Of a stretch of 64,000 bases of DNA, positions 39,841 to 44,358 are shown in pieces; position 1 is the first letter of the stretch; the number at the start of each line of letters is the position of its first letter. The notes beneath the pieces are model-generated. The model saw only the letters and a list, made by a program, of their open reading frames with translations. It had not been told where the DNA came from and searched no databases. The stretch lies in IMG/VR virus record IMGVR_UViG_3300008107_006173. The stretch is one strand, 5' to 3'. The translations under genes were made by a program, and so were the position numbers. The stretch is from a virus. Its lineage: Duplodnaviria > Caudoviricetes.

Positions 39841-40227
39841 TTACTGCTTATTGCGTGATCGTATCAAGTTAGTAAGCATGGTCTCGCGATCGAGAACCTT
39901 ACGGCGCTTACGCTTGCTTTTCATGTATTTCAAATCACCAGATGCGCGGTCTTGCCACACCCCAGCCATTCTCATTTTGTTAACTTCTTTTTGCCAACGC
40001 TTCTTAGCTGATTCTTTTGCACGCTTGCGCTTCACGCCTGGTTTTTCATAAAACTCGTGTTTAGCTAGATCTTTTTGGAAATCATTACGCTCGAGAATTT
40101 TCTTCATCTTTCTCAGCGCATAGTTAACATCATTGTTTCTTACTTCTACTTTAGAACCAGTAAAATGCTTCTCATTCTCGTTGCCTGCGCTACGATCGAA
40201 ATTACGATTCTCAGTCCACTTCTTCAT
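39841..40227 (-). CDS. rpsU: Ribosomal protein bS21 with N- and C-terminal extensions
   Basis: VEVRNNDVNYALRKMKK...HEFYEKPGVKRKRAK. Confidence 0.85.
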   Translation of the reverse strand: MKKWTENRNFDRSAGNENEKHFTGSKVEVRNNDVNYALRKMKKILERNDFQKDLAKHEFYEKPGVKRKRAKESAKKRWQKEVNKMRMAGVWQDRASGDLKYMKSKRKRRKVLDRETMLTNLIRSRNKQ

Positions 40228-41485
40228 TTATGCCTCTGTATGTTTTATACTGTGTGTCAATTTCAGTCCTGCCATCTTCGTATTTTAGAATTGGTGCATG
40301 ACTACTTGACACTGGATACTTATCAAGTATTATTTCAACTACGCCTTGTTTTTTGAGTTCGGGTGCTCTGTACATAATATTGATTAGAGTTTCCTCCACA
40401 ACACCCTTTAACGCTCTAGCGCCAAGTTTTCTCTTTATAGCAAGTGTTGCTGCCGTTCGTATGAACTCGTCCCCGAACGACAATTTAAGATTATCTATTT
40501 CTAATAGTTTTTGGTTCTGCTTTAGAATGCTGTTTTTCACGGATGTTAGCACATGAATTAACTGTTCGTCAGACAGCTTGTCTAGTGGTGCAATAATTGG
40601 TAAGCGACCTAATATTTCAGGAATTAATCCATAGTCAATTAAATCTTCAGCTGAAACAGATCGTAACAAGTTCTGCTTTTCTGCTTCGGTAATTACCTTA
40701 GCGCCAAACCCAATTGTACTTGACTTGCGTAATCTGCGTTCAATATTCTTTTCAATACCAACAAACGCACCACCTACTATAAACAACACATTAGTTGTGT
40801 CAAAGTCTATATAATCGTCAGCATACTTTTTACCAGTTGATATTTTTACTTTGGTAGTTGTACCCTCAATTAACCGTAGTAATGCTTGCTGTACACCCTC
40901 ACCACTTACATCGCGAGTAGCAACATTGCTTTCACTGCGTCTTGCTTTTTTATCAATTTCGTCAATGTATACTATGCCCTTTTGTGCAAGGTCAATGTCA
41001 AAGTCGGCAATAGTTAATAGTCGTTCTAGAACACTTTCAACGTCTTCGCCTACATAACCTGCTTCAGTTAGTGTAGTAGCATCAGCAATGGCGAACGGAA
41101 CATTTAATTTCTTAGCCAATGTCTTAGCAAATAGTGTTTTACCTGTGCCGGTAGGTCCAATTAGAAGTACATTGGTTTTTTCAAGTTCTATGGTTTCGTC
41201 ATCGGACAGCACACGCTTATAATGATTATATGCGCTGACGCTTAGTAGTTCTTTGGCACTTTCATGGCCAATGATATACTCGTCTAGGTGTTCCTTAATT
41301 TCTTTTGGACTAGGTAGTGTGCCAAAATCTGATTCTTCTTCTGGCTTGTCTATTTTTTGAACAATGTTGTAACTTAAAACAACACATTCGTTGCAGATAT
41401 AAACATTAGGGCCTGCGATAAGTTTTTCAACGCTGTCCCTGCTTTTCCCGCAAAAACTGCAATTTAGCATTTTGGTTTCTGGCAT
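40211..41485 (-). CDS. clpX: ClpX ATPase
   Basis: CSFCGK..CNEC zinc finger, [38 protein letters not shown] loop, LGARAL. Confidence 0.97.
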
Positions 41486-42072
41486 TATTTCTTACCTATG
41501 TATCGTTTGTCTGTTGTGTTTGAAGGATCTTGTTTTGGTAAAGGCACCGCCCAGAAACCAATCTTTTTCCTTACTTCGTCTTCTGAACTTTTTTGTAAAA
41601 TTTCAAATATCTGATCTACAGTAAGGTCCTCTTTGTTAAATTCACTTTGTGCTAATAATCTAGCAGCATGTTTTAAATCACCAGTTGCAGCCTTTTCAAC
41701 TTCTACAGGTACTTCAACTTGTACCTCTACGATCTTTTCAACTATCTCTGGCTGTTTATTTACTACTTGTTCTAGCTCATCGATGTGTTTTTTTAGTTTT
41801 TTATTATCTTCAGTGAGACTGTTTTTCTCTCTAGTGATCTTAATAATTTTTTCTACAGTTTCCTTGTCAACTTCTATTACCCTTTGCGGTACAATGACTT
41901 CTTTTATTACTTCAACAGGAACTTCAATTATTTTTTCAACTTCTACGATCTTTTCAACAGGTTTTTCAATCTCAACGATGCGTTCAGGACCGGGGACTTC
42001 GACCAATCTGTCAATGTACTCCACAACTGTTTTGGGTTTTTCAGTGAGTAATCTTTCCAGCTCAAGGATCTT
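41485..42072 (-). CDS. EKIVEV-repeat region; probable -1 frame continuation of the 43016 gene
   Basis: Frame open from the A9 run to 41485; GTG at 42024 has no SD. Confidence 0.7.
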   Translation of the reverse strand, partial: KILELERLLTEKPKTVVEYIDRLVEVPGPERIVEIEKPVEKIVEVEKIIEVPVEVIKEVIVPQRVIEVDKETVEKIIKITREKNSLTEDNKKLKKHIDELEQVVNKQPEIVEKIVEVQVEVPVEVEKAATGDLKHAARLLAQSEFNKEDLTVDQIFEILQKSSEDEVRKKIGFWAVPLPKQDPSNTTDKRYIGKK

Positions 42073-43016
42073 TTTTTTTGGTCTTGCTCTTCAAAATCCA
42101 AAGGTATTTGCTTGTCTTCTATATCTGGGTCAATTTCAGTGCTGACAGAATCTTCTTTGATTTCATCATCTTTATCTTTTGGCTTAGGCTCTGGATCTGG
42201 TTCTGGTTTTTCTAAATGTATACCATGTCTACTCAGCGACTGGTTAGCAGCAATTAATAGTGCAACAGCCAATGGATCAAAGACTGCTACTAGTAAAATG
42301 ATCATCCATCGAACAGCTCGCTCTAGCAAATTGGCATCCGGATTATCGCCGTATATTAGTGCAGCAACATATTTGATAGGACCAACTTCAGCTTCTACTT
42401 TTCGTAGTTCGCCGGCGATCGGTGCCTTTTCTTCTCGTAGTTTAGCAATTTCACTATTAGACTTTTCAATTTCTTGTTGGGATTTTGTAATCTCACCCTG
42501 TAATGCTCTGCGTTCTGATGCTTGTCCGCGGCGAATTTGTATAGAACGCTCAGCACTTGCTTCACTAGTTCCGCGATCCAATCTAGCACTAACTTGAGCA
42601 TCCATCTGCCCTAGAGTAGCTCTAGCAGCGGTAATATTTTCGCGCTGCGATTTTATGTTGTCTTCCTGTATTGAAATGCGCTCATCAATTAACTGCACTT
42701 GAGCAGCCACATCACCTGTGGGTACAGCTTTATCTAAGTGCGCCTTGGATAGATAACCAAAGATACCTAATGATGTAATAATCATTAGTACAAATACAGC
42801 AACAGTTAGATATGTTTTTAAAAAGTAACCGGTTTGTTTCCAGTTACGATATAGCCAACTAGCGGTAACAAGTTTGGCTACTTCTAGGCTACCTGCCATA
42901 ACGGCTACTGCTAATGCAGCACCGCTAAAGATTGCCATTAGTCCAGCGATACTAAAATATGCAGCGATGGCTGCAACCAGTAATGAAGTAAGTAGTGCTA
43001 CGATTCCAATTCCCAT
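41943..43016 (-). CDS. Multi-TM coiled-coil membrane protein (zero-frame product)
   Basis: Three N-terminal TMs, long coiled coil, TM, PEPDPEP linker; TATTTAT at 43022-43028. Confidence 0.85.
   Translation of the reverse strand: MGIGIVALLTSLLVAAIAAYFSIAGLMAIFSGAALAVAVMAGSLEVAKLVTASWLYRNWKQTGYFLKTYLTVAVFVLMIITSLGIFGYLSKAHLDKAVPTGDVAAQVQLIDERISIQEDNIKSQRENITAARATLGQMDAQVSARLDRGTSEASAERSIQIRRGQASERRALQGEITKSQQEIEKSNSEIAKLREEKAPIAGELRKVEAEVGPIKYVAALIYGDNPDANLLERAVRWMIILLVAVFDPLAVALLIAANQSLSRHGIHLEKPEPDPEPKPKDKDDEIKEDSVSTEIDPDIEDKQIPLDFEEQDQKKRSLSWKDYSLKNPKQLWSTLTDWSKSPVLNASLRLKNLLKRS
42071..42079 (-). other. A9 slippery run (candidate -1 frameshift or transcriptional slippage site)
   Basis: CAA AAA AAA AGA in frame 0; AAG ATC CTT GAG in -1 frame. 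Confidence 0.6.
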
Positions 43017-43077: not shown

Positions 43078-44358
43078 ATGCTATACATTGAAAAAATTTC
43101 TTTACCACATATACCAGGCTTCTCAAAGGCTGGTTTAATAGACACTTTTTTGTCTGACCATAACAATGATTTCTATTTAAGTTTTTGGAACAAAGATTGT
43201 AACATACTAGGCAGCACCATTGCATCCCAGCTAAAAAATCATAATATTTTTCTAGGTAGAAAGTTTGGCACAACGGGTGCATCTATATACCAAGCAATAT
43301 TAGACAACACTAATACAGTTTACGAAATCAGTGATGCGGATATTTCGATGATCCCGGCACATTTGCTAAAACAGTTTCTTACAAACTGTACAGTTCTCAT
43401 TCACGATTATAATGAGGGAGGTTCATTTATTTGCGGTAAAAATAATCTTTTAGAGTTGCTTGAAAAACTGAACTTTGTACCTAAGAAAATATATCTACAT
43501 ACATCAAACTACAATTTTAAGAATACAAATTTAACAAATGTAGTGGTACTGCCATACTCGGATATGTTTGCAATTTATACCGCATGTTCAGTCCCGGAGT
43601 TAGTTGATGATCAAATAAAACGTCAGGCTCGATTGGACGCATTAGAATCTATCAGATCGTGCAGAGATTTTCAATATCACGCTATGGTATATAATAGAAA
43701 GCCACGCTATCATAGAGTAAGTTTACTGGCAGAACTAGACACGCTAAACATATTGGACCAATGCTTTTGGACATTAGCATGGAATAAGGAAGGCGATATT
43801 ATAGCGAACGATTGGATAAAAAGTCCAAATGTGCTAAGACATCAAACTGCTATCGCTAATAAATCAGTTAAAACAGTAAACGAATTTTTAGACAAATACA
43901 TGGATACTTTACCTAAAGTATTACCTAATGCGCCCTGTAAGGATCTCAGCGGTAGCCGCTACATAGATTTGACTTGGAGCGAGAAAGTTAAATGGGGCAC
44001 AGCAGTCGAAGTGTTTAATTACACTAATTCTGATTACCCGAATCCACAGGGCTTCCTGTCAGAAAAAACCTGGAGGTATTTTCTATTAGGAATTCCACCA
44101 TTAATTATCAGTGCTAGTGGTGCAAATACATCGTTGAAAGAATTAGGCATGCAAATTGTAGATGCCGTTGACGATACGCTAGAAGGTGATCAGCGAGTGC
44201 AAACTATTGCAAAATTCTTATCAGATGATTTTCATAGCACTATAATTGATCACAAAGAACTCAAAAAAATGTCCTTGAGAAACTTTGAATTAGTTACTGA
44301 TAAAAACTTTTTAGCTTCTATTGTAACTAATAGTCTCAAGGACATTAAGTTAAGTTAG
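43078..44358 (+). CDS. Putative GT-B glycosyltransferase (GT10-like C-terminus)
   Basis: YNRKPRYHR..L, GFLSEKTWRYFLLG.PPLI; paralog of 57624; ATAAATA at 43064. Confidence 0.5.
   Translation: MLYIEKISLPHIPGFSKAGLIDTFLSDHNNDFYLSFWNKDCNILGSTIASQLKNHNIFLGRKFGTTGASIYQAILDNTNTVYEISDADISMIPAHLLKQFLTNCTVLIHDYNEGGSFICGKNNLLELLEKLNFVPKKIYLHTSNYNFKNTNLTNVVVLPYSDMFAIYTACSVPELVDDQIKRQARLDALESIRSCRDFQYHAMVYNRKPRYHRVSLLAELDTLNILDQCFWTLAWNKEGDIIANDWIKSPNVLRHQTAIANKSVKTVNEFLDKYMDTLPKVLPNAPCKDLSGSRYIDLTWSEKVKWGTAVEVFNYTNSDYPNPQGFLSEKTWRYFLLGIPPLIISASGANTSLKELGMQIVDAVDDTLEGDQRVQTIAKFLSDDFHSTIIDHKELKKMSLRNFELVTDKNFLASIVTNSLKDIKLS

Follow-up and report, generated by a model that had tools for sequence, protein, structure and literature searches.

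A conserved nine-adenine run as a probable recoding site in a phage membrane protein gene upstream of clpX

In a 64,000-nucleotide (nt) stretch of DNA from a virus of the Caudoviricetes (Duplodnaviria; IMG/VR record IMGVR_UViG_3300008107_006173), here called the window, a gene for a predicted membrane protein loses its reading frame at a run of nine adenines (A9), and the frame that continues beyond the run extends to the start of clpX. This raises the question of whether the run marks a sequencing or genetic defect, the border between two genes, or a site at which a single gene is read in two ways. The original prediction, made from the sequence of the window, proposed two isoforms of one membrane protein that arise through slippage at the run. 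Relatives that keep both the run and the frame break lend strong support to this proposal, and we consider it highly probable that one gene is read two ways at a conserved A9 run to yield a short and a long membrane protein. The locus would represent a well-supported new example of a known recoding device, found here in a giant freshwater phage.

The frame junction and its conservation in close relatives

The upstream open reading frame (ORF) is located on the minus strand, reads GAC CAA AAA AAA AGA at the run and closes at 41945-41943 (Table 1). The -1 frame opens after a TGA and comprises 201 codons (41488-42090), followed by a TAA stop at 41487-41485. The position of the run at the junction, the frame-0 codons and the open -1 frame down to 41485 had been predicted correctly, and the -1 frame does open before the run, although at a distance of four codons from the lysines and not five. 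Adding a single A, or shifting by -1, generates a conceptual product of 510 amino acids (aa) with the junction QDQKKKILELER, in agreement with the earlier estimate of about 510 versus 357 residues. No ATG is present anywhere in the 201-codon ORF, and its only start-like codons are a GTG at 42024, a TTG located six codons further on and a second GTG close to the end. As none of these is preceded by a Shine-Dalgarno (SD)-like sequence, the GTG at 42024 is indeed the SD-less start that had been noted, accompanied early in the ORF only by the TTG. Gene callers divide the gene into a 'hypothetical protein' and an orphan GTG ORF in every phage that contains it, and the long isoform is therefore missing from databases.

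The site has the properties of an A9/T9 slippage site: a homopolymer of about nine or more bases lies within a coding region, and a one-base insertion opens a long conserved ORF. It also contains a zero-frame heptamer of the X_XXY_YYZ type, which is A_AAA_AAA inside CAA AAA AAA AGA. Counted on both strands, the window holds one A9/T9 run, versus 4.9 expected from dinucleotide-preserving shuffles, and this single copy falls exactly on the frame junction.

The upstream ORF belongs to a very large, phage-only family, in which all of 8000 scored candidates were significant. About 50 protein clusters from NCBI, JGI, ENA and Logan, with identities of 60-99%, terminate at the position of the frame-0 stop, and all of them carry [QE]KKR at the junction. 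The original prediction had suggested a check of whether homologs keep the frame break at the run, and in this regard the loci L081, L082-84, L090 and L166 (96%, 84% and 62-65% protein identity), which originate from different samples, gave a uniform picture. All of them contain C-A9-G followed by GAT and the same -1 break, with exactly nine A's down to the lowest of these identities. The flanks of the run have diverged among these loci while the run is unchanged, and the downstream frame is open for more than 150 codons in every member. Conservation of the run and of the frame arrangement in diverged homologs, a further property of slippage sites, is thus evident from these comparisons.

Substitutions between the window and L082 reveal which frame is used behind the run. 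Within the first 33 codons past the run, 9 synonymous and 4 nonsynonymous changes are found when the -1 frame is read, versus 3 synonymous and 10 nonsynonymous changes in frame 0. Because the changes are mostly synonymous in the -1 frame, this frame is coding from the run itself, i.e. 17 codons upstream of the GTG at 42024; accordingly, 17 of the 33 compared codons precede this GTG. L090 and L166 have no start equivalent to it.

Layouts of the junction across the family and the overlapping tail

In a separate clade, both parts are encoded by one continuous frame. Ten metagenome loci (L161, L163, L164, L168, L172, L173, L175, L177, L184, L185) encode proteins of 615-648 aa that join the N-terminal membrane domain to the E/V/K repeat and the C-terminal domain within one ORF, and many database proteins of 590-670 aa likewise hold the N-terminal domain and the C-terminal part in one frame. 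The conceptual 510-aa product is collinear with these single-ORF homologs over the junction (QKKK-ILELERLL..EKPK vs QKKR-IKDLEKDL..KKPK), and at least 115 of 120 single-frame homologs have [QE]KKR at the junction position. The in-frame genes also keep the homopolymer: in 15 of 15 loci, the sole run of at least eight A's is CAA/GAA AAA AAA AGA at the junction position, while the chance of an A9 spelling, calculated from the codon usage of these loci, is 0.26 per locus. In these genes the slip frames close 1-26 codons past the run. Just past the run, the sequence of the window clade is one base shorter than that of the in-frame clade (A9-G-ATC vs A9-GA-ATA). Homologs are therefore not uniformly single in-frame genes; the close relatives are broken, and one large clade is in frame but retains A9. 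Because the in-frame clade also keeps A9, the run is older than the frame break, and the two clades differ only in their default product. The unslipped product of the in-frame clade would be the long form, which a slip truncates, and that of the window clade would be the short form, which a slip extends.

A second subfamily (L001, L189-194, L204), with an N-terminal domain about 60% identical to that of the window, contains the run as CCT GTA AAA AAA AAG TTA, again with exactly nine A's. Here, the frame-0 tail has 67-76 codons, the -1 ORF has 203-212 codons and encodes a different C-terminal domain, and the +1 frame closes at once. Further recoding cases are L011, L066, L145 and L187. Taken together, the recoding cases represent each of the three codon phases, and in all of them the long frame is reached by a shift in the -1 direction, which corresponds to one added A. 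Among 192 distinct complete loci of the family that were surveyed in a census, a run followed by a long -1 ORF is present in 16, and every one of these runs consists of exactly nine A's; nine loci have an in-frame A9 and a long frame 0, and 155 are devoid of any run of at least eight A's. Most -1 ORFs behind a run contain no ATG, while in other loci conventional downstream genes begin with an ATG within the overlap. A scan of viral contigs with P0080, from the P0058/P0061/P0080 subfamily, found no close relative. In two related family loci, a run of ten A's is followed by GTAGCA (L202:3744 and L203:2055); in L202 the run is in frame with 76 codons after it, and L203 has an immediate stop in frame 0 and a further 77 open codons in the -1 frame. 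The two loci may represent a distinct homopolymer switch that belongs to a different branch of the family.

The third layout is found in a split clade (L085, L086, L178, L180-183), in which the C-terminal part is a separate gene with its own ATG that overlaps the upstream stop. This ATG is located in a conserved GACGATGACGGAACAAGAAGTTAA overlap with the upstream stop (L085:2758-2780, L086, L180, L182, L183), and the protein is split there and not recoded. Shifted long form, in-frame long form and split genes thus provide a natural comparison of three layouts at the same site.

The frame-0 tail, called nondescript in the original prediction, proved to end in a conserved motif that is common to many lineages. 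The motif reads roughly LSW(K/Q)NLT(D/N)W.KSP(V/I/L/T)L followed by a basic end and is shared by 68 of the 120 best family hits, which have N-terminal domain identities of 46-99% and carry the motif 14-73 residues after KKK/KKR. In the window, the tail contains W..LTDWSKSPVL plus the basic end. Frame 0 stays open for 42 codons, and beyond its stop the same frame contains one stop per 8.4 codons (18 stops in 151 codons; estimated p ~0.005). The frame-0 motif overlaps DRLVEVPGPERI of the -1 frame (41979-42026), and over about 28 nt at the motif the window and L082 are identical, while neighbouring third positions vary. EVPGPER is encoded by GTC CCC GGT CCT GAA CGC in the window and is spelled with other codons in single-frame relatives and in L090/L166, in which frame 0 has already stopped. 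In the second subfamily, pairwise differences at the motif amount to 0.245, 0.162 and 0.438 at frame-0 codon positions 1, 2 and 3, respectively, a distribution that is typical of selection on frame 0 and not on the -1 frame. We read the overlap of the frame-0 tail with the long frame as a short stretch of probable true dual coding, and the locus illustrates a region in which two frames both appear to be under selection.

Routes to two products and competing explanations

According to our proposal, unslipped expression would produce a 357-aa inner-membrane protein in which four transmembrane (TM) helices and a long helical hairpin are followed by a disordered linker and a conserved basic tail that is short and amphipathic. 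If an extra A enters the mRNA, reading would continue in the other frame; the most likely cause is slipping of the host RNA polymerase on the A9:T9 hybrid, and the same outcome would be expected from a -1 ribosomal shift on A_AAA_AAA. The slipped product would comprise 510 aa; it would retain the membrane part unchanged and continue into a flexible P/E/V/K-rich spacer and then into a C-terminal domain that is small and conserved. Slippage would thereby set a fixed ratio of short to long form, and it may also feed ribosomes into clpX, with the long frame ending on the clpX start codon.

Polymerase slippage is moderately favoured as the route because the run has a length of nine and is accompanied by neither a conserved RNA structure nor an SD-like element. 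Nine is the run length reported for efficient bacterial RNA polymerase slippage and is used in Thermus dnaX (PMC5009743). No stimulatory RNA structure was found near the site (consensus fold of five relatives, -1.8 kcal/mol; single-sequence fold, z = 0.17), and no conserved upstream GGAGG-like element was seen by eye in the aligned relatives. The downstream structure and the SD element of dnaX- or G/GT-type ribosomal frameshift cassettes were hence not found at the site. The same two isoforms could be produced mainly by the ribosome, either through a -1 shift of tRNA-Lys on A_AAA_AAA or through sliding on poly-A, and as a contributor or an alternative this route is rather unlikely but carries some weight. 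It draws on the heptamer in frame 0, on the in-frame A_AAA_AAG of the second subfamily, which is the dnaX heptamer, and on the reported sliding of ribosomes on iterated AAA codons (PMC4363877). However, seven A's would suffice for a ribosomal shift, yet exactly nine are present in every recoding locus; moreover, all three codon phases are used, and neither a conserved downstream hairpin or pseudoknot nor an upstream SD-like stimulator was found in the loci compared.

The remaining explanations dispense with slippage during gene expression, and comparison with the relatives disfavours both of those that the original prediction had kept as alternatives, namely sequencing error and phase variation. 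Translation of the downstream ORF as a gene of its own from the GTG at 42024 is very unlikely. The GTG is chosen by gene callers and the split clade does encode the C-terminal part separately, but the ORF of the window offers neither an SD sequence ahead of the GTG nor an ATG, the 17 codons from the run to the GTG bear the substitution pattern of coding sequence and can be aligned with the in-frame homologs, and two of the relatives lack an equivalent start. A9 tracts are mutable in replication, and replication slippage could toggle the genome between A9 genotypes that make the short form only and A10 genotypes that make the long form. This phase variation at the DNA level is nevertheless highly improbable: neither the close relatives nor the 25 A9 loci of the census (16 recoding, 9 in frame) yielded an A10 allele, the in-frame clade also holds its run at nine, and heritable switching would be of little gain to a lytic phage. 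A true genome sequence of ten A's, with one continuous 510-aa gene, is barely credible, even though homopolymers are error-prone on some sequencing platforms. A9 and the break recur in independent assemblies from several projects and in relatives down to 62% identity; a fused, in-frame allele with ten A's was not found among close relatives when 5.8 billion protein clusters were searched with the -1 ORF, and the best long proteins that matched the -1 part in this search were at most 63% identical. In addition, the single-ORF clade reads the same nine-A run in frame, so that nine is a genuine count, and frame 0 has a conserved motif of its own. The one base by which the window clade is shorter just past the run might also stem from a recent deletion in a decaying pseudogene, but in lineages with identities as low as 62% neither half is disrupted and both are under purifying selection, with the downstream frame open in every member, and the chance of this is close to nil. 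These comparisons argue that the locus is neither an assembly error nor a pseudogene.

Several points weigh against our interpretation. The split clade suggests that function does not strictly require covalent fusion of the two parts. The relatives cannot be treated as independent samples, so that the number of events is smaller than the counts of conserved runs would imply. The preference for the polymerase over the ribosome is based only on the run length and the missing stimulatory structure, and a nine-A run holds a valid -1 heptamer in every phase; in the second subfamily this is the classic A_AAA_AAG.

Comparable devices are known from several bacterial and phage genes. In Thermus thermophilus dnaX, tau and gamma are produced when transcription slips at an A/T run of nine bases (Atkins et al. 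2016, PMC5009743), and both arrangements occur in dnaX, including genes whose long form is the shifted one, as it would be in the window clade (PMC5009743). The two systems have in common the exact run length of nine, a pair of products that differ in length but begin with the same N-terminal part, and stops close to the run in the non-zero frames, which the single-ORF clade displays here; neither needs an RNA stimulator. In contrast to Thermus dnaX, the phage gene encodes a membrane protein of an unrelated family, slippage is deduced here from sequence, and the short form would have its own conserved overlapping tail instead of being a mere truncation. The tssM gene of Citrobacter rodentium and Yersinia pseudotuberculosis requires both forms and their ratio for function (Gueguen et al. 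2014, PMC4256274). It likewise encodes an inner-membrane protein in two length variants, with a C-terminal domain that is reached only after polymerase slippage on poly-A, but it has 11 A's and is confined to a few strains, whereas the run described here has nine A's and is conserved over many phage lineages; the proteins are not homologous. Escherichia coli dnaX and lambda G/GT resemble the phage locus in that an A-rich heptamer of the X_XXY_YYZ type is combined with a -1 ORF in overlap, and they yield two products with a common N-terminus in a fixed ratio, as the phage locus would (PMC5009743; PMC4344849). They differ in that no stimulatory SD or hairpin was found at the phage site, where the run is longer than the heptamer and the product is not a tail chaperone. 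In Shigella spa13/spa32, slippage extends one protein, the end of the extension overlaps the start of the next gene, as with the clpX ATG here, and slippage can influence the expression of the downstream gene (PMC5009743); coupling to clpX is conjectural by comparison, and clpX has a weak AGG upstream of its own. The locus would extend the small set of genes that make two products at a nine-base homopolymer by a large phage family that is abundant in the environment.

Protein architecture and the clpX neighbourhood

Table 1. Coordinates of the features of the locus in the window
Feature	Coordinates	Strand	Evidence and remarks
Frame-0 ORF, short isoform, 357 aa plus stop	43016..41943	minus	Membrane/coiled-coil ORF; relatives annotated with 352-366 aa in independent assemblies
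N-terminal domain, residues 1-263	42228..43016	minus	AlphaFold2 from 50-sequence alignment; conserved across whole family
Variable Pro/Asp/Glu/Lys-rich linker, residues 264-312	42081..42227	minus	Sequence and length vary widely among relatives
Candidate A9 slip site, C-A9-G	42071-42079	minus	Frame 0: CAA AAA AAA AGA
Frame-0 tail of short isoform, 42 codons (AGA counted) plus stop	41943..42071	minus	Overlaps long frame
-1-frame portion of proposed long isoform (510 aa total), run to TAA	41485..42079	minus	Mostly synonymous changes; collinear with single-ORF homologs
Putative dual-coding core: frame 0, LWSTLTDWSKSPVLNA; -1 frame, VEYIDRLVEVPGPERI	41979..42026	minus	Motif in 68/120 best hits; codons frozen relative to L082
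P/E/V/K/I-rich repeat region, EKIVEV and EVPGPER units	41695..42024	minus	76% P, E, V, K or I
C-terminal domain, ATGDL..SEFNKEDL..GFWAVPLP	41527..41694	minus	Most conserved part of alignment A2; ends single-ORF homologs too
clpX	40211..41485	minus	Pfam zf-C4_ClpX and AAA_2 above threshold; zinc finger and AAA+ domain
Ribosomal protein S21 homolog	39841-40227		Directly after clpX; Pfam PF01165, 53.7 bits
426-aa ORF	43078-44358	plus	No Pfam match; divergent from membrane-protein gene across 61-bp intergenic region

The AlphaFold2 model of the N-terminal domain predicts TM helices at residues 2-30, 34-57 and 64-97, a helical hairpin formed by residues 100-148 and 152-223, and a TM helix at residues 228-263. 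The two arms of the hairpin, about 50 and 70 residues long, are predicted with a predicted local distance difference test (pLDDT) score of 92-97. In the short isoform, residues 282-327 have a pLDDT below 50, and the tail is predicted to form helices at residues 328-335 and 342-356 (pLDDT 81-87). The positive-inside rule and a basic loop between helices 2 and 3 suggest that the hairpin would be periplasmic and that both alternative tails would be cytoplasmic.

The repeat that follows in the long frame had been described as a stiff Glu/Val/Lys rod. In the full-length in-frame homolog P0122, this region is predicted without secondary structure at a pLDDT of about 30; a stiff beta or helical rod was hence rejected as unsupported, and a disordered, flexible spacer of PEVK-like composition is more likely on the basis of this model. 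The region includes one 18-nt tandem repeat at 41920-41958. With its short repeats and no predicted stable structure, the region resembles the PEVK segment of titin; the likeness is one of composition only and implies no homology. Two features that the original prediction did not mention are located at the end of the long frame, namely the conserved small C-terminal domain and the overlap of the stop with the clpX start. For the C-terminal domain, three short helices are predicted in the P0122 model (pLDDT 65-74), and it is followed by a basic tail down to 41488.

Searches of both ORFs against Pfam, PHROGs, NCBIfam and PADLOC returned coiled-coil noise only, and profiles of anti-phage defence systems and PHROGs matched only SbcC, LmuB and SMC at E values of 1e-4 to 1e-3, which is again coiled-coil noise. 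Membership in Pfam DUF4407 (PF14362) was considered and rejected, as the window protein gave no hit and P0057 and P0093 reached 22 bits versus a threshold of 31.3. Tetraspanin (PF00335) was likewise rejected, with relatives scoring 17.6-20.8 bits versus a threshold of 32.1; the likeness to Tetraspanin is one of topology, i.e. four TM helices, of which the third and fourth are separated by a large loop. A Foldseek comparison of the short-isoform model with the PDB yielded no meaningful match, and the matches in the Atlas were phage clusters without names only.

The N-terminal domain is present in cultured phages, including Pelagibacter phage Mosig, XacN1, SCTP-2 and Flavobacterium immuto phages. 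In a nucleotide search of cultured phages, the sole match was a 150-nt stretch in Pelagibacter phage Mosig, and the -1 ORF had no protein-level match in cultured phages. The Mosig homolog (L188, MT647606.1 115144-116124) is a 326-aa 'hypothetical protein' encoded directly after a putative glucosaminidase and near a GH108 lysozyme, a neighbourhood that hints at an envelope or lysis context for the N-terminal domain family. A lysis role was considered from the nearby cell-wall hydrolases here and in Mosig and was set aside, as the hydrolase genes are not adjacent in the window.

The TAA of the long frame overlaps the clpX ATG (41485-41483) in the sequence TAATG at 41487-41483. Among the loci with the GFWAxPLP C-terminal domain and sufficient sequence, 26 of 26 have a clpX homolog as the next gene on the same strand, while a clpX homolog is found downstream in 33 of 128 other family loci. 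We hypothesize a functional link of the long isoform to ClpX and a slip-dependent translational coupling to clpX. Because clpX always follows the C-terminal domain and the long-frame stop overlaps the clpX start, the long arm might serve as a membrane tether or adaptor for ClpX. In the broadest version of this idea, the run would be an old, family-wide ratio switch between two functional C-termini in overlapping frames, and the slip would also meter ClpX synthesis; we offer this version, the tether or adaptor included, tentatively and regard it as unlikely. The constant link to clpX nonetheless provides a starting point for testing the function of this membrane protein family, which occurs widely among large phages.

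Promoter and terminator scans at the locus returned background level only. The gene order with the S21 homolog after clpX is kept in L081, L082, L085 and L090, and in the window the S21 gene is followed by a fusion gene of the cytidylyltransferase/mannose-6-phosphate isomerase type (cupin).

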